Assembly (NCBI RefSeq): GCF_022045235.1
Contig: NW_027266343.1
Location: 52,824,001 to 52,888,000 of the forward strand
Length of the DNA stretch: 64,000 bases
Direction: 5' to 3'
From: Haliotis cracherodii
Lineage: Eukaryota
Shown here: piece after piece, positions 1-57,901 of the stretch
How positions within the stretch are numbered: position 1 is the stretch's first letter
Layout: each line of letters opens with the position of its first letter
The notes under the pieces: model-generated
Database searches by the model: none
Told to the model about the DNA's origin: nothing
Seen by the model: the letters and a program-made list of their open reading frames with translations, nothing else
Program-made: the position numbers and the translations under genes

Positions 1-10
1 TATGCACTGT

Positions 11-1399: not shown

Positions 1400-4300
1400 G
1401 TCAACTGTGTCCCCAGTGACACGTTTTCCCCACGTCTGTTAGTCAACTGTGTCTTTAAATCTGTGTGATAAATTTTAGCAATTTCTATAAGTCAACTGTG
1501 TCTTGATTGAAACAAAACTGTCCATGTAAGTCAACTGCATGTGCCTTTATTGATACATTTTCTCAAATTTTATTAGTCAACTGTGTCTTCATTGATAGGT
1601 TTTCTCAAATTCTATTGGTAACTGTGTCTTCATTGATACGTTTTCTCAAATTCTATTGGTAACTGAGTCTTCATTGATCCATTTTCTCAAATTCTATTGG
1701 TAACTGTGTCTTCATTGATCCATTTTCTCAAATTCTATTAGTCAACTGTGTCTTCATTGATACGTTTTCTCAAATTCTATTAGTCAAATGTGTCTTCATT
1801 GATCCATTTTCTCAAATTCTATTTGTAACTGTGTCTTCATTGATAGGTTTTCTCAAATTCTATTGGTAACTGTGTCTTCATTGATCCATTTTCTCAAATT
1901 CTATTAGTCAACTGTGTCTTCATTGATACGTTTTCTCAAATTCTATTAGTCAAATGTGTCTTCATTGATCCATTTTCTCAAATTCTATTAGTAACTGTGT
2001 CTTCATTGATAGGTTTTCTCAAATTCTATTGGTAACTGTGTCTTCATTGATACGTTTTCTCAAATTCTATTGGAAACTGTGTCTTCATTGATCCATTTTC
2101 TCAAATTCTATTGGTAACTGTGTCTTCATTGATCCATTTTCTCAAATTCTATTGGTAACTGTGTCTTCATTGATCCATTTTCTCAAATTCTATTGGTAAC
2201 TGTGTCTTCATTGATCCATTTTCTCAAATTCTATTAGTAACTGTGTCTTCATTGATACGTTTTCTCAAATTCTATTAGTCAAATGTGTCTTCATTGATCC
2301 ATTTTCTCAAATTCTATTAGTAACTGTGTCTTCATTGATAGGTTTTCTCAAATTCTATTGGTAACTGTGTCTTCATTGATCCATTTTCTCAAATTCTATT
2401 GGTAACTGTGTCTTCATTGATACGTTTTCTCAAATTCTATTGGTAACTGTGTCTTCATTGATACGTTTTCTCAAATTCTATTGGTAACTGTGTCTTCATT
2501 GATACGTTTTCTCAAATTCTATTGGTAACTGTGTCTTCATTGATCCATTTTCTCAAATTCTATTGGTAACTGTGTCTTCATTGATCCATTTTCTCAAAAT
2601 CTATTGGTAACTGTGTCTTCATTGATCCATTTTCTCAAATTCTATTGGTAACTGTGTCTTCATTGATCCATTTTCTCAAATTCTATTAGTAACTGTGTCT
2701 TCATTGATACGTTTTCTCAAATTCTATTGGTAACTGTGTCTTCATTGATCCATTTTCTCAAATTCTATTGGTAACTGTGTCTTCATTGATCCATTTTCTC
2801 AAATTCTATTGGTAACTGTGTCTTCATTGATACGTTTTCTCGAATGCTATTGGTAACTGTGTCTTCATTGATACGTTTTCTCAAATTCTATTAGTAACTG
2901 TGTCTTCATTGATCCATTTTCTCAAATTCTATTGGAAACTGTGTCTTCATTGATCCATTTTCTCAAATTCTATTAGTAACTGTGTCTTCATTGATCCATT
3001 TTCTCAAATTCTATTGGTAACTGTGTCTTCATTGATCCATTTTCTCAAATTCTATTGGTAACTGTGTCTTCATTGATCCATTTTCTCAAATTCTATTGGT
3101 AACTGTGTCTTCATTGATCCATTTTCTCAAATTCTATTGGTAACTGTGTCTTCATTGATCCATTTTCTCAAATTCTATTGGTAACTGTGTCTTCATTGAT
3201 CCATTTTCTCAAATTCTATTGGTAACTGTGTCTTCATTGATACGTTTTCTCAGATTCTATTGGTAACTGTGTCTTCATTGATACATTTTCTCAAATTCTA
3301 TTAGTCAACTGTGTCTTCATTGATACGTTTCCTCAGATTCTATTGGTAACTGTGTCTTCATTGATACGTTTTCTCAAATTCTATTGGTAACTGTGTCTTC
3401 ATTGATACATTTTCTCAAATTCTATTAGTCAACTGTGTCTTCATTGATACGTTTTCTCAAATTCTATTAGTAACTGTGTCTTCATTGATACGTTTTCTCA
3501 AATTCTATAAGTAACTGTGTCTTCATTGATACGTTTTCTCAAATTTTATTGGTAACTGTGTCTTTATTGATACATTTTCTCAATTTCTATTAGTCAACTG
3601 TGTCTTCATTGAACGTTTTCTCAGATTCTGTTGGTAACTGTGTCTTCATTGATACGTTTTCTCAAATTCTATAAGTAACTGTGTCTTCATTGATACGTTT
3701 TCTCAGATTCTATTGGTAACTGTGTCTTCATTGATACGTTTTCTCAAATTCTATTGGTAACTGTGTCTTCATTGATACGTTTTCTCAAATTCTATAAGTA
3801 ACTGTGTCTTCATTGATACGTTTTCTCAAATTCTATTGGTAACTGTGTCTTCATTGATGCATTTTCTCAAATTCTATTAGTCAACTGTGTCTTCATTGAT
3901 ACGTTTTCTCAAATTCTATTGGTAACTGTGTCTTCATTGATGCATTTTCTCAAATTCTATTAGTCAACTGTGTCTTCATTGATACGTTTTCTCAAATTCT
4001 ATTGGTAACTGTGTCTTCATTGATCCATTTTCTCAAATTCTATTGGTAACTGTGTCTTCATTGATACGTTTTCTCAAATTCTATTAGTCAACTGTGTCTT
4101 CATTGATACGTTTTCTCAAATTCTATTGGTAACTGTGTCTTCATTGATACGTTTTCTCAAATTCTATTGGTAACTGTGTCTTCATTGATACGTTTTCTCA
4201 AATTTCTATTAGTCAACTGTGTCTTCATTGATACGTTTTCTCAAATTCTATTAGTAACTGTGTCTTCATTGACACATTTTCTCAAATTCTATTAGTAACT

Positions 4301-4412
4301 GTGTCTTCATTGACACATTTTCTCAAATTCTATCAGTCAAATGTGTCTTCATTGATCCATTTTCTCGATATCTATGAGTCAACTGTGTCTTCATTTATAC
4401 ATTTTCTCAAAT
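1400..4412. repeat. 41/42-bp minisatellite, about 70 copies
   Basis: Unit GTAACTGTGTCTTCATTGATCCATTTTCTCAAATTCTATTG, degenerate at both edges. Confidence 0.97.
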
Positions 4413-6664
4413 TGTTCATTTCTACGTTAGTTTCTAAAATGACACTTCCATATATTTTTATGTTAATGGGCTTTTTACACCCACGAGTTTCATATCGCCT
4501 AATAAAGATAGATAAAATTGATATTAGTCAGGAGTCAGTTAATATTTCACGACAGGAAACTGGTGCTGGCGTAATGAGATAACTCGCAGTATCAGCACTG
4601 CACTGTTATCCCAGTTTCAATATGTTGCATAATTGATATTGATATTGGGATTGATATTCAAACAATGGGAGTCGGGGAATCTCAAATAGTGGGCATTACA
4701 AATTTGCTTTAACAACAGATCGTGTATATATTTCACTGCATTATTTTTACCAGGTTTACATTGAGGAGTAGAACACGATCCGTTCAATATTTATACTATC
4801 TAACCAATAGCTTTGTATGCTATTGTATCTGATATGAAGGCAACTGTACCCGGTGATGCATAGCTGTACATGTTTACAGTCACGTCTCAACTACAACGAA
4901 AATTTACAGTTCTTTAGATATACCGACCACGCTAAAAGATTGAAATAAATGTAAAAACTGAAAATTCTCATTTGTGACGCTATACATCAGTAATCATGTA
5001 ATTATGCTCGCGGAGGGCTACCGTCGTGAAAACGTGTGCCCAATCCTTTTCCTTGGGAATAAAATATGTTTAAATCAAATACAGTCCCGTAAAAACGTGT
5101 ATACTGTCTGATAATTCCACAAATTAGGACTATTAAAGGTTTTTAACGAATTCTAGAATCTTTATTTTACTAGAATATGAGGTTTATATATCGACCTCCT
5201 ACACGGTTGTGTAATCTACAGGAAAACCACAACGTTGAGCATTTGAAAGTATGAGCACAGGGAAACTCTACTATATCCAGTTTAACAAGTTTGTTTGAAA
5301 TACAACCGAGCTGACGCCCTATTACATGGCTGCTTCACAAGTATTCCCAAGTGTGACTATCTATTTGATGGGTGTTTCCAGGTTAATGTATATACAGCTT
5401 GAATTACCCCTCTATACACGTTTCATCTGAAGGCGTACACACTCCCCAATGCGTGACGTATTGTGTGGGCTTTGACCAGACTAGTAATGCAATTGTACAT
5501 GTATTTAAGATGTATTTTCCATGGATGTCGCAATTCCCTATGCACTGACTCCCTTCAAGGCTTGTCAATCCGGAGCCTTCATCAATCAGACTACGAGAAT
5601 ACAGGATAACTGGAGTTGGCCCAGTTTCGTTGATATCATCCCAACGCCGGAAGGAAATTCATATGATGTATATAGTGCATGATAGCATTTCCCTGAGGAA
5701 AACGGTGCTTGAGGGAACTGGGTCGTGGACAAATAGCTAGGAACTTTAACACACATGGATACTCACATACGTTGTTTTAAGACTATCGTCAAAGTGAAAT
5801 ACAACATTATCAAATCAATTATATAGTAACCCGGAAACCGGTTTATTCGCAGGACGAACCCTACGAAGTCGTGCGATTTTTTCTCGAAATCAGTTGTGCA
5901 AGTGTCTTGCTTAATCCGGATTAAGAGGGGGTCGTCTCCAAAGCAAAGATCAAAATTTAATATTCACGGTTCACTAAGATCGATGTGTTCTTACAAAGTC
6001 GACCTGAGCGTATACATTGATGTACATCGAGGTTCATAAAAAAGCATTTGCTTGACTGGACCTCAGAGGTTGTGATATGCAGACACCAAAGGCTGGACCT
6101 TCTGGAATGTTGCTCAACATAAAGATTGACGTCAAGTGGAAGTCAACCTCTTGTTATACAGCCATGTGGAGTTTTTCATGCATACAATAAACTTGAAGGG
6201 CAATTCACATTGGACGAATCATTTCAAATGTAGTTAAAAAGAACAGTCAGATAAACTCATTCCAATCATTAAAATGATTTCTGAAGCTCAAAAGGAATTC
6301 CGAGCGGATTTGCTTGTCATTCAATTCGTGTCCCACGGCCAGCGATGACACCAGTATTGTATGTGTTGACAAAGGCGAACATATCGAAGTATTTGCGAAT
6401 TTTTCAATGTTTGAGATGGAGCATGTTTACAGCATGCTAATAACATTCAAAAGAATCATAACCGCGAATAAATGTGAAAGTTTGACTTCAAGTTTCGCAC
6501 GCATTTTCCTTGTGTTGTATACAATAGTGTAACATTTGAATGTGACCAGAAACCTTCGGAATATATCAAATACTGGCTGTCATGTTGTGATTCGGTCGCT
6601 TTACGATCCCGATGATCTCAATGACACCAATGAATATGCGTAATATAACCACCAACACTGCTCA

Positions 6665-7291
6665 CCAGAGTGAGTGTTTTGGGCCTAGTAGAGGAGAGTG
6701 ACCTGACCTGAGCCTGGAGTTAGTGTTTTGGGCCTGGTAGAGGAGAGTGACCTGAGCCTGGAGTGTGTGTTTTGGGCCTGGTAGAGGAGAGTGACCTGAG
6801 CCTGGAGTGTGTGTTTTGGGCCTGGTAGAGGAGAGTGACCTGAGCCAGGAGTGTGTGTCGTGGGCCTGGTAGAGGAGAGTGACCTGAGCCTGGAGTGAGT
6901 GTTTTGGGCCTAGTAGAGGAGACTGACCCGAGGCTGGAGTGTGTGTTTTGGGCCTAGTAGAAGACAATGACCTGAGCCTGGAGTGTGTGTTTTGGGCCTA
7001 GTAGTGGAGAGTGATCTGAGCCTGGAGTGTGTGTTTTGGGCCTAGTAGAGGAGAGTGATCTGAGCCTGGAGTGTGTGTTTTGGGCCTAGTAGAGGAGAGT
7101 GACCTGAGCATGGAGTGTGTGTTTTGGGCCTAGTAGAGGAGAGTGACCTGAGCATGGAGTATGTGTTTTGGGCCTGGTAGAGGAGACTGACCTGACCCGA
7201 GGCTGGAGTGTGTGTTTTGGGCCTAGTAGAGGAGAGTGACCCGAGGCTGGAGTGTGTGTTTTGGGCCTAATAGAGGAGAGTGACCTGAGCC
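6665..7291. repeat. 44-bp minisatellite, about 14 copies
   Basis: Unit CTGGAGTGTGTGTTTTGGGCCTAGTAGAGGAGAGTGACCTGAGC. Confidence 0.95.
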
Positions 7292-9159: not shown

Positions 9160-11790
9160 AACACTACTGCAAAATGAGTGCAATCCATCATGTTTGTTCT
9201 TGTGAAAAGTTGTTAATCACTTTGTCAAAGTCAATATCAAGATCTCTGTGGATATGAAGCAGTGCTAGTACATTAAGCCGCTCGGTTACCATTGTTGACC
9301 TGAGATATGATTTGACACGTCTCAATGCAGTAGCAGGAAATTCTGGCAATGTGACAAGTGTTTAGGTAACATGAATATTTGGATAAAGAAAATCTTTTGC
9401 AAATGTTGCGCATAGCCACGATTGTTTCTCCCGTGCAGGGACATCTTGTCAGCGTGCTTTCTAGCGCCTGATTTCAACAGTTTGTTGTTTTTCAAAACGG
9501 CCGTTGGGACAACTCAGCATTTGTGTCATTTGCGGGGACATATGACCAAGCACGATATAGTGACGATTTTCTTCAAGTACATTTCTGAAGTTGATCCAGT
9601 GGCATGGCCGCGCATCATTTGATGTCCTACTCACCTTGGCATAGTAGGATCAATGGCATATTCATTCGATAAATCGTAGACATCTTTGAATAGCTATTCC
9701 CCTACAGTGATGCCTTCACGTTATTGTCTCTAAGAACTGATGACAACTTTGGCCTCACTTGATGCTCGAATGAGATCAGTGGTTGCCGACTACAGCATGA
9801 GCGGTTACTGGACTGTGTATTCGATGACAACTTTGGCCTCACTTGATGCTCGAATGAGATCAGTGGTTGCCGACTACAGCATGAGCGGTTACTGGACTGT
9901 GTATTCGATGACAACTTTGGCCTCACTTGATGCTCGAATGAGATCAGTGGTTGCCGACTACAACATGAGCGGTTACTGGACTGTGTATTCGATGACAACT
10001 TTGGCCTCACTTGATGCTCGAATGAGATCAGTGGTTGCCGACTACAACATGAGCGGTGACTGGACTGTGTATTCGATGACAACTTTGGCCTCACTTGATG
10101 CTCGAATGAGATCAGTGGTTGCCGACTACAGCATGAGCGGTTACTGGACTGTGTATTCGATGACAACTTTGGCCTCACTTGATGCTCGAATGAGATCAGT
10201 GGTTGCTGACTACAACATGAGCCGTTACTGGACTGTGTATTCGATGACAACTTTGGCCTCACTTGATGCCCGAATGAGATCAGTGGTTGCCGACTACAGC
10301 ATGAGCGGTTACTGGACTGTGTATTCGATGACAACTTTGGCCTCACTTGATGCTCGAATGAGATCAGTGGTTGCCGACTACAGCATGAGCGGTTACTGGA
10401 CTGTGTATTCGATGACAACTTTGGCCTCACTTGATGCTCGAATGAGATCAGTGGTTGCCGACTACAGCATGAGCGGTTACTGGACTGTGTATTCGATGAC
10501 AACTTTGGCCTCACTTGATGCTCGAATGAGATCAGTGGTTGCCGACTACAGCATGAGCGGTTACTGGACTGTGTATTCGATGACAACTTTGGCCTCACTT
10601 GATGCTCGAATGAGATCAGTGGTTGCCGACTACAGCATGAGCGGTTACTGGACTGTGTATTCGATGACAACTTTGGCCTCACTTGATGCTCGAATGAGAT
10701 CAGTGGTTGCCGACTACAGCATGAGCGGTTACTGGACTGTGTATTCGATGACAACTTTGGCCTCACTTGATGCTCGAATGAGATCAGTGGTTGCCGACTA
10801 CAGCATGAGCGGTTACTGGACTGTGTATTCGATGACAACTTTGGCCTCACTTGATGCTCGAATGAGATCAGTGGTTGCCGACTACAGCATGAGCGGTTAC
10901 TGGACTGTGTATTCGATGACAACTTTGGCCTCACTTGATGCTCGAATGTGATCAGTGGTTGCCGACTACAGCATGAGCGGTTACTGGACTGTGTATTCGA
11001 TGACAACTTTGGCCTCACTTGATGCTCGAATGTGATCAGTGGTTGCCGACTACAGCATGAGCGGTTACTGGACTGTGTATTCGATGACAACTTTGGCCTC
11101 ACTTGATGCTCGAATGAGATCAGTGGTTGCCGACTACAGCATGAGCGGTTACTGGACTGTGTATTCGATGACAACTTTGGCCTCACTTGATGCTCGAATG
11201 AGATCAGTGGTTGCCGACTACAGCATGGGCGGTTACTGGACTGTGTATTCGATGACAACTTTGGCCTCACTTGATGCCCGAATGAGATCAGTAGTTGCCG
11301 ACTACAGCATGAGCGGTTACTGGACTGTGTATTCGATGACAACTTTGGCCTCACTTGATGCTCGAATGAGATCAGTGGTTGCCGACTACAGCATGGGCGG
11401 TTACTGGACTGTGTATTCGATGACAACTTTGGCCTCACTTGATGCTCGAATGAGATCAGTGGTTGCCGACTACAGCATGAGCCGTTACTGGACTGTGTAT
11501 TCGATGATGTGCTGAGTAACAACAAGGTGTATGGTGAAATCCAATGATTGAATGATCATCTATATACGCCACCATCCTGTTTTACGGTCGTAAGAATATG
11601 AACGAATATGAACAACTTGCCCAGCGTGTTTCACAAATTTTAATTATCTTTCGTCAGGCATGTTCATTCGGTTCCGATTCTTCATTGAAAGCCACGAGGC
11701 GTGTTACGGAATATGAAAAGGCACAAGCAATGTATTCAACAGCTGACATGATCATGAGACGTACAAATCGTCAGGATACTGACGTCCACT
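9160..11790 (-). pseudogene. Degenerate hAT-superfamily transposase, interrupted by a minisatellite
   Basis: Minus-strand translation gives ...KIIKICETRWAS (~11600-11650, hAT CxTRW motif), DFTIHLVVTQHIIEYTVQ*RLML*SATTDLIRASSEAKVVI (~11420-11545) and the dimerisation domain ALRRVKSYLRSTMVTERLNVLALLHIHRDLDIDFDKVINNF (~9205-9330); stops and frameshifts present. Confidence 0.88.
9740..11503. repeat. 84-bp minisatellite, 21 near-identical copies
   Basis: Unit ATGACAACTTTGGCCTCACTTGATGCTCGAATGAGATCAGTGGTTGCCGACTACAGCATGAGCGGTTACTGGACTGTGTATTCG; 21 x 84 = 1764 bp. Confidence 0.98.
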
Positions 11791-15937: not shown

Positions 15938-16444
15938 GTACCTTTAAGATCATACCGTATTTAAGACAACACTTAACAAAATTCATCGATACCTTTAAGA
16001 TCATACCGTATTTAAGACAACACTTAACAAACATCGTCGATACCTTTAAGACCATACCGTATTTAAGACAACAATTAACAAACATCATCGATACCTTTAA
16101 GACCATATCGTATTTAAGACAACACTTAACAAACATCATCGATACCTTTAAGCCATACCTTATTTAAGACAACACTTAACAAACATCGTCGATACCTTTA
16201 AGACCATACCGTATTTAAGACAACACTTAACAAACATCGTCGATACCTTTAAGACCATATCGTATTTAAGACAACACTTAACAAACATCGTCGATACCTT
16301 TAGGACCATATCGTATTTAAGACAACACTTAACAAACATCATCGATACCTTTAAGACAATACCGTATTTAAGACAACACTTAACAAACATCATCGATACC
16401 TTTAGGACCATACTGCATTTAAGACAACACTTAACAAACATCGA
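15938..16444. repeat. 51-bp minisatellite, about 10 copies
   Basis: Unit GATACCTTTAAGACCATACCGTATTTAAGACAACACTTAACAAACATCGTC. Confidence 0.95.
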
Positions 16445-18175: not shown

Positions 18176-18897
18176 ATGACAGCTGTTATGGCAAGACCGT
18201 GTGGTCTCCGTTCGAGTTATGCTTTAACACCGACCAGCAGTCCCGACAGAAGCGACTGTCTTGATGACGACTGCCACACAATGACAAAGCAAGCCATAAT
18301 GAAATCAGAGGTAAAGAGACTAAACTCATTCAAACTCTGGCCAGCGTGGGCGACCCAAAACCCTGCAATTTTAGCCCAAGCTGGATTCTATTACACAGGA
18401 ACAGGTGATCGAGTAGAGTGTCCCTTTTGTTTTGGTATTTTAAAACAATGGCACACAAATGATGTTCCTTTATTAGAACATATGAAGCATTTTCCTTACT
18501 GTAACTTCATCCAGGGGGGTGATGATGGTAACATACCTATAGCAGAAAGTGTACAGAACTCACCTGTTTCTCGTAGATCTGCCCAAACCCAAGGGGTTGA
18601 AGGCGGCTGTGACTATACACGAGAGGAATTGAGACTAAAATCATTTTCAAGATGGCCGCGAAATGTGTCTCAAACCCCGGAAGCCCTTGCACGAGCAGGG
18701 TTCTACCATATACCATGCGAAGAGAAGCCAGACCGTGTGAAGTGTGGTTATTGTCGAGGGAAAGTATACAACTGGGCCTGTGGAGACGACCCCTGGATTG
18801 AGCATGCAAAGTGTTTCCCGACTTGTCCCTATATAAAGCTGTGTATTGGGGAAGATGTCATCAATGATCTACTGTGCCAACAGAACGGTGTCACAAG
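18176..18897 (+). CDS. Inhibitor of apoptosis protein 1, coding exon 1 (two BIR domains)
   Basis: RLNSFKLWP...AGFYYTG...VECPFC...EHMKHFPYC and RLKSFSRWP...VKCGYC...EHAKCFPTC with Cx2C-H-C zinc ligands; donor AG|GTAGGT, phase 2. Confidence 0.95.
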
Positions 18898-19210
18898 GTA
18901 GGTTGATATATAACAATACTCACAGCTTATTTTCCTGTATTTCTAGATTTGGCACCATCCTAAACGTGCACGTGGGTTTCACCAGGGTAGTACGCGTCTA
19001 AGACTTTCTCCACCCATATCACAATGACACTGATACTGATTAAAACGGCGTTTAATCCAACTCACTCACACTCACTATTTCCAACATTGTTCAACACACA
19101 TATATGTCGAACTCGAAACAGTAATGGAAACTTTTCCTGCTGAGAGTGGAATCATACCTTGATGCTTGTTCGAACCCTGAGTACACCCCTGCCAACGAAC
19201 GATGTAAATA

Positions 19211-19374
19211 GTGAGTGAGTATTGTTTTACGCCGTTTTTAACAATATTCCAGCAATATCACGGCGGGGGACATCGGAAAATGGGCTTCACTCATTGAACC
19301 CATTTGGGGAATCGAACTCGGGTCTTCGGCGTGACGAGCCAACGCTTAAACTACTAGGCTTCCCCACCTCCCTG
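19211..19374 (-). mobile_element. SINE family 1 in the IAP-1 intron
   Basis: tRNA-like head and ACTC tail; target-site duplication (TSD) CGATGTAAATA at 19200-19210 and 19375-19385. Confidence 0.9.
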
Positions 19375-19618
19375 CGATGTAAATAAAACTTGCATGTTTG
19401 CAGTCACGATGTAAATATTATGAAGGGTGATGACGTCAACATATGTATCTGTTTTCCCTCGCGTCCATGGCCCTGAATACGTGTATGACTGCATGTATAA
19501 ATGACACATTATATAGTTTAAATATTTGTAATGGTGTGGTAAACATATGTTGATCCAAAATAAAGACTGGATTAAGACTTTTCACGCAACTATATTTTAA
19601 ATGTGTAAATATTTTCAG

Positions 19619-20192
19619 CCAAGAAAATGCGGAAGGAGTCGTGATATCAAACTCTTCTGACGAGGTTAATTCAACCGTTGACGAAGTAACACAACTCATG
19701 ATGAGTGATGCTGTTCAGGCCGTTCTCAAGATGGGATTTACGTCAGATCTCGTAAGAACTGTTGTACACAAGTGGCACACAGAACGATGTTGTGATTCAG
19801 TTTCCGCACAAGAGCTCGCCATTGCTGTTCTTGAAATAGGAGAAGGAACAGGAATTACAACAAATAACGTAAATGACACCAGAAGTTCAACGCCAAACAG
19901 ACGTGAATTACGCCATGAAGACATCAACAGACATTCATCATCTAACAGGGGCCAGATTTCAAGTCAAACACTATCGGATATGACACAAAATGTTGACCTC
20001 ATGAGAACGGTTCAAGACGAGAATGTTCACATGAGAGAGCGGTATCTGTGTAAAGTCTGTATGGAGAATCAGCTGAGGGTGACGTTCATGCCATGTGGTC
20101 ACCTGGCGTGTTGTGGTCCCTGCTCTATGGCCATGTCCGACTGTCCGATCTGCCGGACGCCCATTACAGGGTGTGTCAGGAGCTACTTTTAG
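19619..20192 (+). CDS. Inhibitor of apoptosis protein 1, coding exon 2 (UBA-like + RING); spliced product 431 aa
   Basis: Acceptor TTTTCAG, phase-compatible with exon 1; AVLKMGF UBA-like motif; RING CKVC...PCGHLACCGPC...CPICR; ends VRSYF*. Confidence 0.95.
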
Positions 20193-20879
20193 TCTTCATT
20201 GTGTTGTGTGATCAATTGTCAAGTCATGTATTGCAACCGAGACAACATGCTGGAGCACAAGGTGACTTTTCATCAAAATTTGAATATGCATGTACGTGTT
20301 GAGCTTGTTAACGATGACTCGTACACTGCAATATGAAAAGAATGAGTGTTGGTGAGGAATATCTATGTATAACAGATGTGCCGAACTACGGTTTCAACAT
20401 GAGCACACATTTACTTGTTTAATCATACAGCATTATCAGATATGATGTATATGGCAATATATTGTTGTGATAAGTTAAGGTTATACTGTCATTTTTGTTA
20501 TACGTTCGTACATTTCATCCAAAGACTTACGTATATGATATAGATATTGTGTATGACAATGATTTTCGTTATCTTGTTCTTTGATGTTTCGTTACGGGTA
20601 TTGATGTATTATTCATTTTATGTTATACTTGTTCACGTGATTTTACAATCATGTTCTTTTTAATTGTTTTTGTTTTTATCGTTTTTTAGTAGATATGTGT
20701 TGCTGCGATGTGTTAGCAGTAGTTGGTTTGGTTTGTATATATAATGTCATAAAATTGGTTGACAATAATGGCAACTGTGTCTTTAACATACAAAAGTACA
20801 CACATTTGCACGTATGGACCATGGTTTTAAAACCTCTACTTCAACATGACATGATACAGTGGAAACGTTTCGAAACCTA

Positions 20880-21965
20880 CTTAAGTGAAATAAGAGCGAC
20901 AAAACCCTTTCCGTATACATAAGAAATCTCTACCAAAAGGAGAGTCGACTGTTCGACTCGGACTATAGCATGTGCATATGAATCACTATCAAACATTGTA
21001 GACACCACGTGCTCGCGAAAAGGTGAGCCCGTAACAAACACACGCAAAGGCAAGTCAATTGCACCTGAAATAATACGAGAACGTATGGTACAAGTCAAAA
21101 TAGGGCAGTGCGTGGGACATCATTTTTGTCACTAAAAAGGAAATGTCCTCCAATGTTCTACCAAACAACCTTTGAAAGCTTCGCTGACGCCTTGAACGTT
21201 GTAACGTTGCTTAACAACTTTTGAGCAAGAGTCGTATGATCATTATTACCTACTTAATGCATCTTTACACTCGGAACGTTATCAGTTTGTTGTGCAATAT
21301 AATTAGTAATGGAACTTAAGCTCTTCGCCACCATCCACGATCATGACAGGAATTTCTGTAACGTAGCCCTGTGACGTATGTACGTGACCCAACCTGCAAA
21401 ATGCATTCGTTTCTGCATATTATAGTTGTCGTTTGCTCGAATAGTCCTGGTATTGAGAAGGGGCACGGGTGGCCCAGTCGTCTAAGGCGCCGCGATTCGC
21501 TGTGCAGAGTAGCGTGCCTTGGACACGCCAGAAACCTATGATTGTGGGATCGAATCCCGGTTCGCCCCGATTATGTTTCTAGGTTTGTAAGCACCATACC
21601 CGTGCTCGTGGGTTTCACCGAAGTGGTAAACGTCTGAGACCTGCATCACTTCGGGCGTTCCTCCCACATTAAGCTGACACGCCTTGATATAAGTGGAATA
21701 TTGTTAAAAGCGGCGTTAAACCCAACTCACTCATATCTGGGTACAAAGAGCATGCTCGATTGCACCTGAAAAGTTGTGAAATGGAGACACCAAGGATGCT
21801 GCTGCTGGTATATTGCTCGACATAAAGAGAAAATGGACCATTGCAAAGTTGAAAACTTCCCGCTTGTCATACAGTTCTGAGGATTCCCCATTGTCACTGT
21901 GAATCTGGATGCATGCATCTAAATAAGAAACAGATGAGGCAGTTTCACTGGTCTCTTCTTTCATA
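20880..21965 (-). mobile_element. Penelope-like retroelement 3' fragment, split by insertions
   Basis: SYLD...LYDKREVFNFAMVHFLFMSSNIP at 21733-21965; the continuation at 20880-21242 is homologous to 42670-42990. Confidence 0.75.
21460..21732 (+). mobile_element. SINE family 3 (tRNA head, Meta/MESC-like core), full length
   Basis: A box TGGCCCAGTCGTCTAAGG, B box GGATCGAATCCC, tail GCGGCGTTAAACCCAACTCACTCA. Confidence 0.88.
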
Positions 21966-21974
21966 TATATATTC

Positions 21975-22012
<38 letters not shown>

Positions 22013-22028
22013 CTAGTTCAGATGGATA

Positions 22029-22194
22029 GGGGCGGTCGGGTAGCCTATTGGTTAAAGCGTTCGCTACTCAAGCCGAAGACCCGGGTTCGATTCCCGACAT
22101 GGGTACATTGTGTGAAGCCCATTTCTGGTGTCCCCTGCCGTGATATTGCTGGAATATTGCTAAAAGCGGCGTAAAACCATACTCACTCAATCAC
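22029..22194 (+). mobile_element. SINE family 1 (tRNA-Asp/Glu-like head), full length
   Basis: TAGCCTATTGGTTAAAGCG...GGTTCGATTCCC; TSD TCAGATGGATA at 22018-22028 and 22195-22205. Confidence 0.92.
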
Positions 22195-23856
22195 TCAGAT
22201 GGATAATTCACTGGAAGGGAGTTGGTAAGTAAGACATAGAGGAGAATCAGTAATAGTATTATGACAATGGGTTGGCTGAATTTAAAGAAACTGGTTTCAC
22301 ATTCTTTCACACGAACCTAATATACCTCGCGATAACGGGTAATGCTTACTTTACACTACGGGACATGAAACAATGGTACATCATCTAGATTCATTCGCTC
22401 CGGGGGTAATAGCACGTTACTAGAAGCTATTTAATTATTTCCTGATTAATTAAATTAGTCTTTCTCTAATTATACCAATAGTCTCTCTAAACGTTATTGG
22501 GTGCAGTTACTTCCCTTTATACGGTGAGCAGACAACATAAGACGGAAACACATCAACGTCAGCTCATTTCATCGTTCATTGATTAAAAAGCATACCATTG
22601 TATAGAGATTTGCAGGTCAGACACAGCTTCGATTTTAATTTGCAAAACCGAGGAACAGATTTCGTTAAGCGCGACTTCGGGTACATATGATCTGTTAGAT
22701 CAAGGAAGTAAACGGGTATTGTGTATTCCCACCTCAGCGTAATAGGGCCTCTTCTATCCTCGATTATACGTTTTCGTCATGAAACTAAAAAAATGAATTC
22801 GGTCACATATATATTCAGTATGCATTCCAACCGCCATGACTGTCTATACGTAATACTAGACTACGTCATATATGGAAGTATAAGCCTTACCATATGTTCA
22901 AATTTTGTTTTTTGTCACTGAGATCATTAGAATTCTTGTAAATATTCAAAGTTTGAAGACGTACGTGTATGTATGATGTTATTGATCAAAACAACGTGCA
23001 TTAAAAATGGCAATATTTATACTGTGTTGACATATTTCAAATAAATTTAAATGTTTGAAATTTAATTTGGTTTTCTTTGACGGATAAATGGGTCCATTGC
23101 TTAGCTTTGGAAAAGGATATCTATTATATGGAGACTATTCCAAATGTGCTTTACACTCCAAGAGCATTGGAACACTGTTAATTTGAGCAGTTGCCGGCAT
23201 GTAACAAATGATGTAACAGTTAGGGTGAGACGTGGAATGCGAAGATATTATATGTGGACGGACTGCACCGGTGTGTTTCACAATCATTACGTCACATACC
23301 CATGGTGTACATTCATTGACACGACACGTTGACACGTTGGACTATCACTAGGTCACATTGACGATGTATAGGTAGATCTACAACCAGCACGTGTCTCATG
23401 AAGGTTTCCAAGTATCAACTATCAACTGACATCGGTACGAGACTATCAATATAACAGTCCACTACTTCACCAGAATTAAGCATACATACATGGACATGAA
23501 GGTTCATTCATATATGCTATAAATAGCGACATGAAGCCGAGCGATCTGTCTGCAACAGACAATCGCTATTTGTATGTTATCGCTGAAACGGATTATCAAA
23601 GTGATATTGTGGGTGTTTTTACGGTGCTATTTCTTTGACAAAAACACACGATCTTGAAGTAATTACGAATAGTGTATCAAGAGCTGGTATTTTGTAATAA
23701 ATAACGGAAACTCCAGTGTGACGTCGATCGTCTATTTATAGCATTGGGTAAACACGCTTTAACCTCGCCTATATAGGCAGTCGATTGAGTGAAATGCTCA
23801 ATCAGCTACAGGGTGTGCGGTTACAAGTATCACTATATAGCATTTACTAAGCAAAG

Positions 23857-24572
23857 ATGACTGCTATGATTTCAAGGCCTTGTGAAATCCATCAAGGGTA
23901 TATATATGATCCTGCTTGTACCTTACACCATATAAGCTATCTTAATGAAGCCTCCCGAGCAATGGCGGAGGCATCTCGCATGGAATCAGAAATAAATAGA
24001 CTAAACTCGTTCAAATACTGGCCAACATGGGCAACCCAGAGTCCAGCTAGTTTGGCTAAAGCTGGATTGTATTACACAGGAAGAGAGGACAGGGTTGAGT
24101 GCCCCTTTTGTTTTGGTGTTTTAAAAAAATGGCAGGCTGGTGATAGTCCTCTACAAGAACATAGGACGCATTTTCCTTATTGTAACTTCATCCAGGGGAA
24201 TGATGTTGGTAACATACCCATAGAAGAAAAAGTCCAGACCTGGCCATCTGTTCCACACGCAACTCCAGAAGCTGCCCAGACTACAGGCTCCTGTGACTAT
24301 ACACGAGAGGCCAACAGGTTAAAATCATTTTCAAGATGGCCGCGAAATATGTCTCAAACCCCGGAAGCCCTTGCACGAGCAGGGTTCTACCATATACCAT
24401 GCGAGGAGAAGCCAGACCGTGTGAAGTGTGCCTATTGTCGAGGGAAAGTATACAACTGGGCCTGTGGAGACGACCCCTGGATTGAGCATGCAAAGTGTTT
24501 CCCGACTTGCCCCTATATAAAGCTGTGCAAAGGGAACGATACCGATGACCTTCAGCGCCACCCACACAAGAG
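23857..24572 (+). CDS. Inhibitor of apoptosis protein 2, coding exon 1 (two BIR domains)
   Basis: Two intact BIR domains; donor AG|GTATGT, phase 2, same position as in IAP-1; TATATAGG ~85 bp upstream. Confidence 0.95.
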
Positions 24573-24751
24573 GTATGTTGATATATATCAAATTATATGC
24601 ATGATTTATTACAAACATCGATATCTTAATCATGTATTTGCTATTGTTTTTGTAAATATACATAATTCTGTAAAAATATTAAATATTAATATTAATTGGA
24701 AATGTTAGATCTGATATTTTGTAATATAATATATATTTTGTATATTTTCAG

Positions 24752-25319
24752 TACTGGGAACAAGACGGAAACTATGTTTAAATTACATTCTTCTGAATCG
24801 GAAGTTGACGAAGTTACACAACTCATGATGAGTGATGCTGTTCAGGCCGTTCTCCAGATGGGATTTACGTCAGACCTCGTGAGAACTGTTGTACACAAGT
24901 GGCACACAGAACGATGTTGTGATTCAGTTTCCGCACAAGAGCTCGCCATTGCTGTTCTAGCAATAGGAGAAGAAACAGGAATTACAACAAATAACGTAAA
25001 TGACACCAGAAGTTCAACGCCAAACAGACGTGAATTACGCCATGAAGACATCAACAGACATTCATCATCTGACAGGGGCCAGATTTCAAGTCAAACACTA
25101 TCGGATATGACACAAAATGTTGGCCTCGTGAAAACGGTTCAAGACGAGAATGTTCACATGAGAGAGCGGTATCTGTGTAAAGTCTGTATGGAGAATCAGC
25201 TGAGGGTGACGTTCCTGCCATGTGGTCACCTGGCGTGTTGTGGTCCCTGCTCTATGGCCATGTCCGACTGTCCGATCTGCCGGACGCCCATTACAGGGTG
25301 TGTCAGGAGCTACTTCTAG
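24752..25319 (+). CDS. Inhibitor of apoptosis protein 2, coding exon 2 (UBA-like + RING); spliced product 427 aa
   Basis: Acceptor TTTTCAG in compatible phase; 179-bp intron; intact RING. Confidence 0.95.
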
Positions 25320-35538: not shown

Positions 35539-37074
35539 TACTGAACCGCAAAAGAAACGTCACCATGAATAGATATGTGAGAAACCTTATTTGTTCAAAC
35601 ACTGTAAACATACTTTGAGACATATTAAAAATATGAAACTTGGCAAAACTGATCATCAAGCTTGACATTAAAGTGTCAAATGTTCTTAAAGTGAAACACG
35701 ACACTAGTGGCTGAGTAAATGGCATCAGAAGTCAGTATCTCGTGTGTCCGTCATGTGCATTGATGACTGCCGTGCAACGTCGATACATGGAATGGATGAG
35801 GCGGTTGATGAAGGCCATAGGCACTTGAGCCCACATTCTGGGGAACGCCTGACGCAGTTCAGCTGCAGCTGTCGGCCTTGGTCGGACATCATTCAGCCGT
35901 CTTTCAATCTCGCCCCACAGGTGCTCAGTGGGATTTAAATCGGGACTGAGGGCAGCCCACTGCATGGTTCTGATGCCATTCTGCTGGAGGAAGTCTCTTG
36001 TTGCTCTCGCAGTGTGGGCACGGGCGCTATCATGCTGGAACTCGTGGTTGCGGCGACGTGCCAAATGAGGTATGGCGTGTGGTCTCAAGACTTGATCAAT
36101 GTTGTTGTGACACCATTGCCTCTCCCTGGAACGATGTTCTGGAAGACCACAGGGCCGACCCTCTGTGCAACACCAATTCCACCCCACACCATGATGCTCG
36201 GACCACCCCACGAGTCTCTCAACAACACAAGCATCCGAATAACGTTTCCCACGGCGTCGCCAGACTCTCTCTCTGCCATCTGCTGTTTAGATACCATTAC
36301 GGCTCTCGTCTGAGAAGAGGACTCTTCTCCACTGCAGGTGGCGCCAATGCTGGTGCTGTGTTGCCCACTGAAGACGGTCCCGGCGATGGCGTGGTGTCAG
36401 AATGGATCCTCGGTGTGGCCTGTGACTGTGGAGGTGTCTGTTCGTCAATCGTCGACGCACGGTGTCAGCACTAATGTGTCGCAGGTGTGTCCTCATGGTC
36501 TGTCCAGCAGTTTCCGCAGCAGTAACAAAGCGTTGTTGAAGATGCTGTCGCACAATCTGACGATCCTGACGTCTGGTGGTGACCCTTGGTCTTCCACTAC
36601 GTGATCGGTCATCTGTAGTGTTGGTGGTCTGGTACCATTGCTGAAGCCTGAATATGGTCCTTACGTGGACTTGAAATGCATTGGCTACTTGCCGGGCGGT
36701 TTGTCCAGCTTGCAATCGTCCAAGGGCTTGGTGTCGCTGATTTCTTGTCAGTCTTGGCATGTGGTAGCAATTCAATAACGAATGAATGTTATCCGACCGA
36801 TCTGGGTGTATTTTTATAGGGCAAGAAATGGGGGAACGCATGCGCATTTCAATTTGCACGGAACTCACGTGCATCGAGTTACCACGGTCATTGCCGTGAT
36901 GCGTTTGGGCGATCGGTTTCATTGTCATATGCTTTGTTTTTTCATTATCAAATTTCCCTTTTCCGGACAAGGTAATGTAAAATTTTAGAAACTTTGACAA
37001 AAACTACCCAGATATTTAAATGACAACCTTTTATGCAATGTACAAGGGGTTGACGTTTCTTTTGCTGTTCAGTA
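35539..37074 (-). mobile_element. Full-length Tc1-family DNA transposon (~1.54 kb)
   Basis: TIRs TACTGAAC(C/A)GCAAAAGAAACGTCA at both ends (1 mismatch in 24), flanked by TA. Confidence 0.93.
35732..36760 (-). pseudogene. Tc1 DD34E transposase pseudogene
   Basis: MPRLT..., GRPRVTT, VLFSDESR, WGGI, FQHDSARAH and SPDLNPTEHLW (34 residues between the second D and E), split over several frames. Confidence 0.92.
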
Positions 37075-56158: not shown

Positions 56159-56941
56159 TTGTATAGTCAGCAAACATCGTTCTAGTTGTATTATATTCAC
56201 AAGAGAAACAAGCAAAGTGATCTAGTGAGGTTGATTGATCAAACCAATTATGAAATTAATGACATGACAAGTTGCTTTCAAAGGGGTTTGGAAGAGACAG
56301 TATCAAGACATTTTGCTTAATTTTACAGTGTTCGCTGTAGAGTTTTAGAGTGTGACAGGTGTTTCATTATATCAACCTGTCGTGCCCATGCCAACACGCA
56401 CGCTCCATAAATATTTCATTATATATATGCATGTTAACAGTAGACACCCAGCCTGTGGTGACATGTGACGTCTTGCTGAGCTTGCACAGGGCAAAATAAT
56501 GTAAATGAGGTTATTTTCATATTGTTGTATAACGGCATGGGTTGTATAAAACGGTATGTGAATGTATACAAAATGTAATACTGGGATGAACTAACGGGTC
56601 ATCTCTACAATATTGTATTGAATTCAATTGTATTCAAATACACCTGATATGTCCGACAAAAAATAATACACATTGCTTGAACATTTATTATTCAACATTA
56701 TTTGTTTGTTTGTTTTTTGTTTACCTCCGCACTCTGCAACACTCCGGTTATACCCAACAACCTTACATTATATTTATGATATATATTCTTTTCATTACAG
56801 ATCCGTATGGTGAAGCGTTGGCTGTCAGCGATGCAGGGTTTCACATACAATACACGCAGACCTTAACGTTATCACGGAAGGTGGTAAAGATATAAGACAC
56901 GGAACGTTGGAGATATTTTTCTGACACACGTGACAAGGAAA
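56159..56941. repeat. Segmental duplication copy 2 (paralogous to 11-1155)
   Basis: Direct collinear match with substitutions and deletions. Confidence 0.9.
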
Positions 56942-57901
56942 AGTTGTATGTGTGTATTTGCAATATTTACAAATTTGCTTTTGACAGACCAAGATAGCCC
57001 ATACTTCAATAAAGACAACAAAACCATAAGGAAATTTCTTTTGATTAATAAGATATGTGTTCTACTAGAATTAGTAAAGTGAACATGCAACGGTAGAAAT
57101 GACTGAATTTGCTCAGGTCATTCATATTTTTCATGGTACGCATGGCCCATGTCAAAAGTACACAACTAAGGTCTATGTCAGCTCAGATGAGTTTGTTTTT
57201 TGTACCAAATGATAGTTTTTATTAACAATCTATAATTATGCCTTTGTCGTATATTGGTCTGGGGTGTAAATTTAATGTATACCAGCTAGCACTGACACAT
57301 TCGTGTAGATGGATCATCACAGTCTGAGTAATGGTATTATCTTTAAAAAGTTTTTAATTGGTATAAATATATTTTGGGTTATTATCTGGTTTCTAAGATA
57401 CCCCAACACACACATGTGTGTTATGTCAGATCCGCGTGAAGTACCTTTACTTCGTTATCAAGGGATAACTGACCAAAAAAATACAGGTTGCTAGAAAAAA
57501 CATGGATTCCTCAATAAACATTCACAACCATATTATGGTATATATACCACAAATTATTAACGCAGAGATATATAAAATTCGAACGAATTATTTGGAAATT
57601 TGTCACCGAAAAGAAAGCTATCGTAAAAAGGTCAACATTAAATACTGACATAATTATTGTTTATGAAAACTTAAAGTTATAAATATTATGGGTTTTAAAT
57701 AACCTAAATGGGTGACTTACATATATTCTGGTTTATCTAACCTGAAAGAGACTAGTATGTTGCTCCCACACAGTTTAATCAGTTGAAACTATTTTTAACA
57801 CATCGTTGGTACTCAACTACATGTGTTTTCATTCAGTTGATAAGATTGTGATTCTTCCCGTTTCTTAATGCCTTAAATTTGAACGAGTTTTGAATATTAA
57901 A

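Follow-up and report, generated by a model that had tools for sequence, protein, structure and literature searches.

Mosaic concerted evolution of a tandem pair of IAP genes in abalone

Introduction

Tandem duplicates in which one part of the gene evolves in concert while another keeps separate descent are known from other gene pairs. In mammalian TLR1 and TLR6, the C-terminal signalling part groups by species and the N-terminal recognition part by orthologue, with independent conversion in each lineage over a single tract of 300 amino acids (aa) with near-fixed boundaries (PMC2077338). For BMP8A/B, DDX19A/B and TUBG1/2, exon classes with opposite topologies, upstream divergence and whole-gene trees that mimic repeated duplication were described (PMC2720389). 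In abalone, repeats 3-22 of VERL are homogenised, while repeats 1-2 escape (PMC2704960). The present study concerns a stretch of 64,000 nucleotides (nt) from Haliotis cracherodii (contig NW_027266343.1, positions 52,824,001 to 52,888,000; hereafter the window), which harbors two tandem genes, A and B, encoding inhibitor of apoptosis proteins (IAPs) with two BIR domains, a UBA-like region and a RING. A first-pass annotation of the window, made from the sequence alone, had proposed that repeated gene conversion maintains a common BIR2 and UBA-RING module in both genes.

IAP expansion in molluscs has been ascribed to tandem duplication, retroposition and domain shuffling (PMC8917759, PMC7831173), and the clustering of paralogues from single species described in PMC7831173 was read there as suggesting expansion after speciation. 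The word "conversion" does not occur in the main text of either article. No report of mosaic concerted evolution in mollusc IAPs was found in the literature searched, which covers few subscription journals. The pattern as such is well documented for other gene pairs; as far as searched, the mollusc IAP case is new.

Results

The divergence between gene A (18176-18897 joined to 19619-20192) and gene B (23857-24572 joined to 24752-25319) is strongly uneven along their length. Two nearly identical, gap-free tracts were found, in agreement with the first-pass annotation. Tract 1 comprises the BIR2 core (18636-18843 in A, 24320-24527 in B; 5 mismatches in 208 nt), and tract 2 the UBA-like region, the linker before the RING and the RING itself, all in exon 2 (19677-20192 versus 24804-25319; 13 mismatches in 516 nt). 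When the first comparison is extended in the 5' direction (18607-18843 versus 24291-24527), 12 mismatches in 237 nt are counted, of which 7 fall into a 9-nt island (18627-18635) at the 5' edge of tract 1. This island encodes residues 151-152, which differ between A and B in all four species compared below. The 20 identical nt preceding it (18607-18626) were considered as a short B-to-A patch, which is not claimed here, since six conserved codons can give such a run by chance.

The number of synonymous substitutions per synonymous site (dS) between A and B is 1.14 in the N-terminus, 0.54 in BIR1 and 0.76 in the linker, compared to 0.09 in the BIR2 core and 0.04 in the exon-2 tract; in the segment following BIR2 it is saturated. 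BIR1 (residues 48-113; 18317-18514 in A and 23998-24195 in B) is not homogenised, with 48 of 246 nt different and a ratio of nonsynonymous to synonymous divergence (dN/dS) of 0.16/0.54, or 0.29. It had been counted among the strongly diverged or unalignable regions, but is readily aligned (59 of 82 aa identical). Unalignable in the strict sense are the introns and the flanks: for the intron, the upstream kilobase and the downstream kilobase, no alignment scored above those of shuffled sequences (28, 30 and 34 against maxima of 31, 32 and 36; 100 shuffles each).

Silent sites are included in the near-identity. Among codons specifying the same amino acid in both genes, 15 of 56 differ in BIR1, compared to 4 of 65 in the BIR2 core (Fisher's test against BIR1, p 0.002) and 5 of 153 in the exon-2 tract (p 3e-6). 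At four-fold degenerate sites, the corresponding values are 7/21, 0/28 and 3/75. The longest run of silently identical codons (106, with 305 codons scored) was not reached in any of 20,000 shuffles (p 5e-5); the test used was an in-house permutation in the manner of Sawyer rather than GENECONV itself.

A-like and B-like proteins were gathered by protein searches and cluster look-ups from H. rufescens (the two halves of a fused model, P0031), H. rubra (P0003 and P0001) and H. asinina (P0004 and P0036), and trees were calculated from 11 proteins (8 A/B proteins and 3 outgroups). In the part spanning residues 262-431, the A and B proteins of cracherodii, rufescens, rubra and asinina differ at 8/170, 11/155, 2/171 and 7/171 positions, respectively, whereas distant orthologues differ at 33 to 58 of about 170, namely 44/170 (A) and 46/170 (B) between cracherodii and rubra, 57/170 between cracherodii and asinina, and 35/171 and 33/171 between rubra and asinina. 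Informative sites in this C-terminal part support grouping by species over grouping by orthologue with 39 to 0 (cracherodii/rubra), 48 to 0 (cracherodii/asinina) and 29 to 0 (rubra/asinina). In BIR1, the same counts are 1 to 5, 1 to 5 (plus one crossed site) and 0 to 11.

The trees show the same contrast. BIR1 yields an A clade (bootstrap 90) and a B clade (71), while the tree of the C-terminal half joins A and B of rubra (94) and of asinina (100). Both lineage trees are rejected by BIR1 and by the pooled non-converted regions (approximately unbiased (AU) test, p <1e-39), and the orthologue tree is rejected by the C-terminal half (delta logL 288; Kishino-Hasegawa (KH) and Shimodaira-Hasegawa (SH) p 0; AU p 0.049). 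Orthologous descent is followed by the N-terminus, BIR1, the first linker and the post-BIR2 segment. For BIR2, 6 to 7 lineage-type sites against none separate the cracherodii/rufescens from the rubra/asinina lineage, and the orthologue tree is rejected by the AU test (p 0.032), with KH and SH p values of 0.052 and 0.072. Thus, the grouping expected under conversion was obtained for BIR1 and the C-terminal half, and for BIR2 at the deep split only.

Since BIR1 groups by orthologue and the C-terminal half by species, these comparisons show one old A/B duplication, preceding the split of the four species, followed by separate re-homogenisation of the C-terminal half in the cracherodii/rufescens, rubra and asinina lineages. 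The rapidly evolving linker before the RING is included. Its residues 316-375 are identical between the rubra paralogues (0/60 differences) and differ at 25/60 positions between A of cracherodii and A of rubra, so that purifying selection cannot explain the identity. A paralogue-like region in three lineages, orthologue topology elsewhere and clustered silent identity together constitute mosaic concerted evolution, and the repeated conversion envisaged at the outset is supported by both the non-uniform dS (0.04-0.09 in the tracts versus 0.54-1.14 in BIR1 and the N-terminus) and the per-domain trees. H. iris and H. rufescens have been dated to 39.9 million years ago (Ma), the split of H. iris and H. 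rubra was calibrated at >84.9 Ma (PMC13544226), and that of Turbo and Haliotis is placed at about 111 Ma (PMC13575190). A persistence of the pair over tens of millions of years is the safe reading.

The whole-protein tree of the eight A/B proteins has one group with the cracherodii/rufescens copies (90) and another with the rubra/asinina copies (95), a lineage tree that is not distinguished from the orthologue tree by the AU test. The pair is also merged in annotations. A and B of rufescens are given as a single model of 863 aa (P0031), and for rubra, A, B and a chimera that passes from A to B inside BIR2 (P0003, P0001 and P0033) are entered as isoforms X1-X3. In the B half of P0031, a zinc-ligand His of BIR2 is replaced by Arg next to three further private changes, which might reflect a damaged allele or a sequence error. 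The rufescens A model is devoid of 15 residues of the pre-RING linker (corresponding to 25014-25058, paralogous 19887-19931), and 45 nt are missing at this site from one contig of X7, a DNA run.

Eight of 21 listed sequencing runs were compared with the window. Short-read contigs (Logan) of other individuals, designated here by run (X1, X5 and so on), suggest that the homogenisation continued. At 25008/19881 and 25014/19887, both window copies carry a common base that is absent from the examined contigs of X7, X12, X13 and X15. The contig of X5 covering tract 2 carries both bases, its four differences being located elsewhere. The shared bases fit a conversion after the split from the sister species. 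To judge from contig ends, an A/B difference at 19688/24815 is probably present in X1 and X15 and absent from X5, which would represent a segregating conversion.

The boundaries of the tracts are not constant. Exon 2 of asinina A is of B type from its first codon, and the exon-2 tract of rubra begins a few residues earlier than that of cracherodii. In the genome analysed here, the identity of A and B stops at the stop codon, as originally described, but this does not hold throughout: in X13 and X15, derived from two other organisms, the sharing extends about 28 nt into the 3' untranslated region (UTR; compared by eye). In a second IAP pair (P0006/P0009 in rubra, P0005/P0007 in asinina), homogenisation extends to BIR1, with 2/80 differences within and 7-9/80 between species, and in rubra also to the pre-RING linker. 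Its post-BIR2 segment is of orthologue type (12/21 and 15/21 differences within species, 3/21 and 7/21 between). In the cracherodii genome, only one gene was found as counterpart of the second pair (P0145 at L011-L012).

Both genes of the window are intact, lie on the + strand and contain a single phase-2 GT-AG intron each. The spliced frames are open and encode 431 aa (A, identical to database protein P0002 of H. cracherodii) and 427 aa (B, identical to P0032 of the same species). Exon 1 of A (18176-18897) encodes the N-terminus, BIR1, a linker, BIR2 and the post-BIR2 segment (18844-18897) and is followed by the intron (18898-19618, 721 nt); exon 2 (19619-20192) contains a linker, a UBA-like bundle, a disordered linker, the RING and the stop codon. 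In B, exon 1 (23857-24572, according to the spliced translation) ends with a polar post-BIR2 segment (24528-24572), and the intron (24573-24751, 179 nt) separates it from exon 2 (24752-25319), which contains tract 2. A contig of run X12 skips exactly the 179 nt of the B intron, and in a contig of X13 the two tracts are 112 letters apart, as in spliced A. Both genes therefore appear to be spliced in these runs, whose RNA status is a guess; none of the listed runs is on record as RNA, and contig depths were not used to rank the expression of A and B.

Two stretches matched the Pfam BIR family (141 and 145 bits, cut-off 22.9), with the Cys/His ligands present in both proteins, and the C-terminal RING was recognised above the Pfam cut-off as zf-C3HC4_3, with the cIAP2 RING as the best PDB match (E 1e-14). 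With at least one zinc-liganded BIR and a C-terminal RING, A and B belong to the IAP (BIRC) family; a single residue of 56 distinguishes their RINGs. The UBA label given initially is weak: UBA_BIRC2-3 matched below the Pfam cut-off (E 0.047-0.056), the region alone gave no PDB match, and the alignment obtained within the cIAP1 chain 3t6p was a weak one. Structure prediction placed a helical bundle at approximately residues 260-318. A type II BIR is defined by E/Q76, H77, W/H80 and C84 (PMC8917759). BIR1 of both proteins is of this type (E101, H102, H105 and C109; signature E-H-x-x-H-x-x-x-C), while BIR2, with Cys at position 80, is type II-like only. From the domain content, both proteins would be expected to act as E3 ubiquitin ligases and to bind IAP-binding motifs.

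A search of the genome found tract 2 in two copies only. A third two-BIR/RING IAP gene (L003:6805-9435) is located about 0.6-3.2 kb upstream of the window in the same orientation and with the same two-exon layout. It shares about 40% identity with A and B, a low-complexity insert lies between its two BIRs, and no sign of conversion with either gene was seen. The intron of A contains a dispersed repeat (approximately 19210-19373), and two more lie between A and B (21460-21735 and 22030-22197). These repeats are of very high copy number, with further copies across the window.

Besides the gene pair, the window contains tandem arrays at 1540-4413, 6668-7291, 9739-11507 and 15939-16442 with units of 41, 44, 84 and 51 nt, respectively; the 84-nt array consists of 21 copies (98% matches) with open frames on both strands. 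A Tc1/mariner-type transposase remnant in two frames (HTH_Tnp_Tc3_2 and DDE_3) was found on the - strand at 35732-37003. Positions 11-1159 and 56159-56945, 55 kb apart, share three collinear blocks of 87-95% identity, probably a repeat element. Elsewhere in the genome, dozens of the 150 BIR matches scored have identical scores and are dispersed over many contigs. Three of the four copies at L017-L020 (G000:C56, C12, C13 and C5) have about 7 kb in common (91-98% identity), and in these a frame for a 1,431-aa protein-primed DNA polymerase B lies beside a single-BIR frame; the fourth has an integrase-chromodomain frame nearby. These copies resemble Polinton/Maverick elements that have a BIR gene on board, and they would inflate IAP counts.

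Discussion

Conversion or an equivalent exchange of sequence, in whichever version, is almost certainly responsible for the pattern. We favour, with a probability of about 0.62, that A and B are old tandem duplicates subject to recurrent ectopic gene conversion, the limits of the tracts being set mainly where usable homology ends. Direct repeats 5.1-5.7 kb apart would exchange sequence where their similarity is high. Purifying selection on BIR2 and the RING might keep these stretches similar enough to recombine and thus provide anchors, and the linker between UBA-like region and RING, lying between two anchors, would be co-converted. Tracts would stop at the unalignable intron (721 nt in A, where a repeat is inserted, versus 179 nt in B), at linkers bearing insertions and deletions, and at the approximately 20% diverged BIR1. 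The predicted outcome is a pair of E3 ligases that have the same ligase end and differ in their promoters and in the front ends that bind targets. A conversion templated by RNA was also weighed and discounted, as both introns are retained and the region of the exon-exon junction is the most diverged part.

Several observations weigh against this reading. The gene-specific post-BIR2 segment in two independent pairs and the persistence of a 208-nt island are less well explained by neutral limits. BIR2 showed no clear homogenisation since the rubra/asinina split (1 versus 2 sites), and the cracherodii and rufescens proteins offer one species-type, one orthologue-type and one crossed site. X12 lacks the two shared bases despite having the species code of the window, so these are possibly polymorphic. 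The GC content at third codon positions of the RING tract is not raised (36-37/56 compared to 34/56 and 31/56 in two single-copy relatives; small counts). The comparison with the other species relies on proteins predicted by automatic gene models, and since A and B are merged in some of these, tracts might be mis-assigned. Finally, the sequences would look no different after a double unequal crossover.

Selection might instead set the boundaries, conversions over BIR1 and the post-BIR2 helix being removed because these segments bind gene-specific clients or caspases, and the shared RING keeping both proteins matched to a common set of E2 enzymes or to one another. This is possible but rather unlikely. 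Conversion spares BIR1 in 4/4 species, despite its being encoded by the same exon as the BIR2 tract at a distance of about 90 nt; H93 in A and Q93 in B are each fixed in 4/4 species and correspond, by their offset from the conserved Trp, to position 311, listed among the groove-lining positions in PMC6360406. The post-BIR2 segment is of orthologue type in both IAP pairs and gene-specific in 4/4 species, and that of A aligns to terminal helix residues of an ML-IAP/XIAP BIR3 chimera. The terminal helix of XIAP BIR3 serves caspase-9 inhibition. BIR3 blocks the dimerisation of caspase-9 (PMC7863939). The helix following BIR2 is predicted to be longer in A (17 residues, 226-242; predicted local distance difference test of the block 94/82) than in B (6 residues, 229-234; 80/60, thus with lower confidence), in models built from 37-row alignments with full-length predicted template modelling scores of 0.34-0.36.

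On the other hand, a simulation of fixed differences in BIR1 gave a negative result for the idea of a shared E3 module while BIR1 specialises, with 4 fixed A/B sites against 4.07 expected (1000 simulations) and 12 disjoint sites against 13.7, both with low power. BIR1 has a dN/dS of only 0.29, the post-BIR2 segment adjoins a non-homologous intron, which in itself acts as a shield, and the second pair does convert BIR1. Together, the B-type exon 2 of asinina A, the sharing of the 3' UTR and the converted BIR1 of the second pair favour homology limits over fixed functional borders. A more far-reaching proposal, which we consider unlikely, combines a shared ligase chassis carrying selected plug-ins, with BIR1 and the post-BIR2 helix kept unconverted for tens of millions of years in two pairs, with conversion as the cause of a sizeable part of the "recent expansion" clustering in molluscs.

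Homogenisation through repeated unequal crossover within the tracts, with rounds of expansion, chimera formation and contraction, in place of non-reciprocal conversion is very improbable. The direct tandem orientation would permit it, and rubra P0033, which is A up to BIR2 and B thereafter, is the expected product of one crossover. This model is filed as a splice isoform, however, and might stem from faulty read mapping. An A and a B protein are retained in 4/4 species, and no A-to-B junction was seen among the 15 listed of 1379 contig joints, a weak argument.

Scarcely credible are an assembly or polishing artefact, a recent duplication or purifying selection alone, as a recent whole-gene duplication is incompatible with flanks at dS of about 1, the two copies have silent sites and a fast linker in common, and three other species' models show the pattern with sequence of their own. 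The artefact is further disfavoured by contigs of other individuals, in which the breaks coincide with the tract ends and the depth is about doubled. In X1 and X5, gene-specific contigs end 29-41 nt inside the tracts (30 nt in X5), which are filled by a contig of double depth, and X7 behaves likewise. The X5 contig spans 19677-20188 at a depth of 46.5, compared to 24-36 for A-specific flanking contigs and about 25 for most unique contigs. In X7, from another organism, a contig covering 25129-25319 has a depth of 30 versus 11-14 for unique contigs. In favour of an artefact, Logan contigs drop variants and hence show near-identity of the copies rather than identity, and the raw reads of X18 and X19, sampled at about 1 in 100, gave less than 1.2-fold depth in unique bins, most of which were empty.

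Recurrent conversion of this kind makes old duplicates look young. Where BIR1 shows one duplication, the whole-protein tree implies two, and a dating of the mollusc IAP expansion based on clustering can therefore mislead; per-domain trees could show how far such misdating holds in bivalves. In two of the four species, the tracts seem to have misled the annotation as well. BIR1 and the post-BIR2 helix are the segments that may distinguish A and B on a constant background, which suits a swap design.

Compared to known IAPs, A and B share type II or type II-like BIRs and a tandem arrangement with the XIAP/cIAP/DIAP-like BIR-BIR-UBA-RING proteins, and their RING is closest to those of cIAP2, cIAP1 and XIAP. 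With regard to concerted evolution, VERL is found in the same genus, but is homogenised within one gene, and its escaped repeats are under positive selection (PMC2704960), which is not shown for the IAP pair. BMP8A/B, DDX19A/B and TUBG1/2 resemble the pair in their topologies, upstream divergence and misleading whole-gene trees; their tracts include introns and match no domains (PMC2720389), whereas the introns of A and B are unalignable and the tracts coincide with BIR2 and the UBA-RING exon. TLR1/TLR6 are likewise tandem immune paralogues with an independently converted C-terminal part, the boundaries of which the authors of PMC2077338 could not explain. In place of their single tract with nearly fixed limits, the abalone IAP pair has two tracts, between which lie a gene-specific segment and an intron, and their limits shift from species to species.

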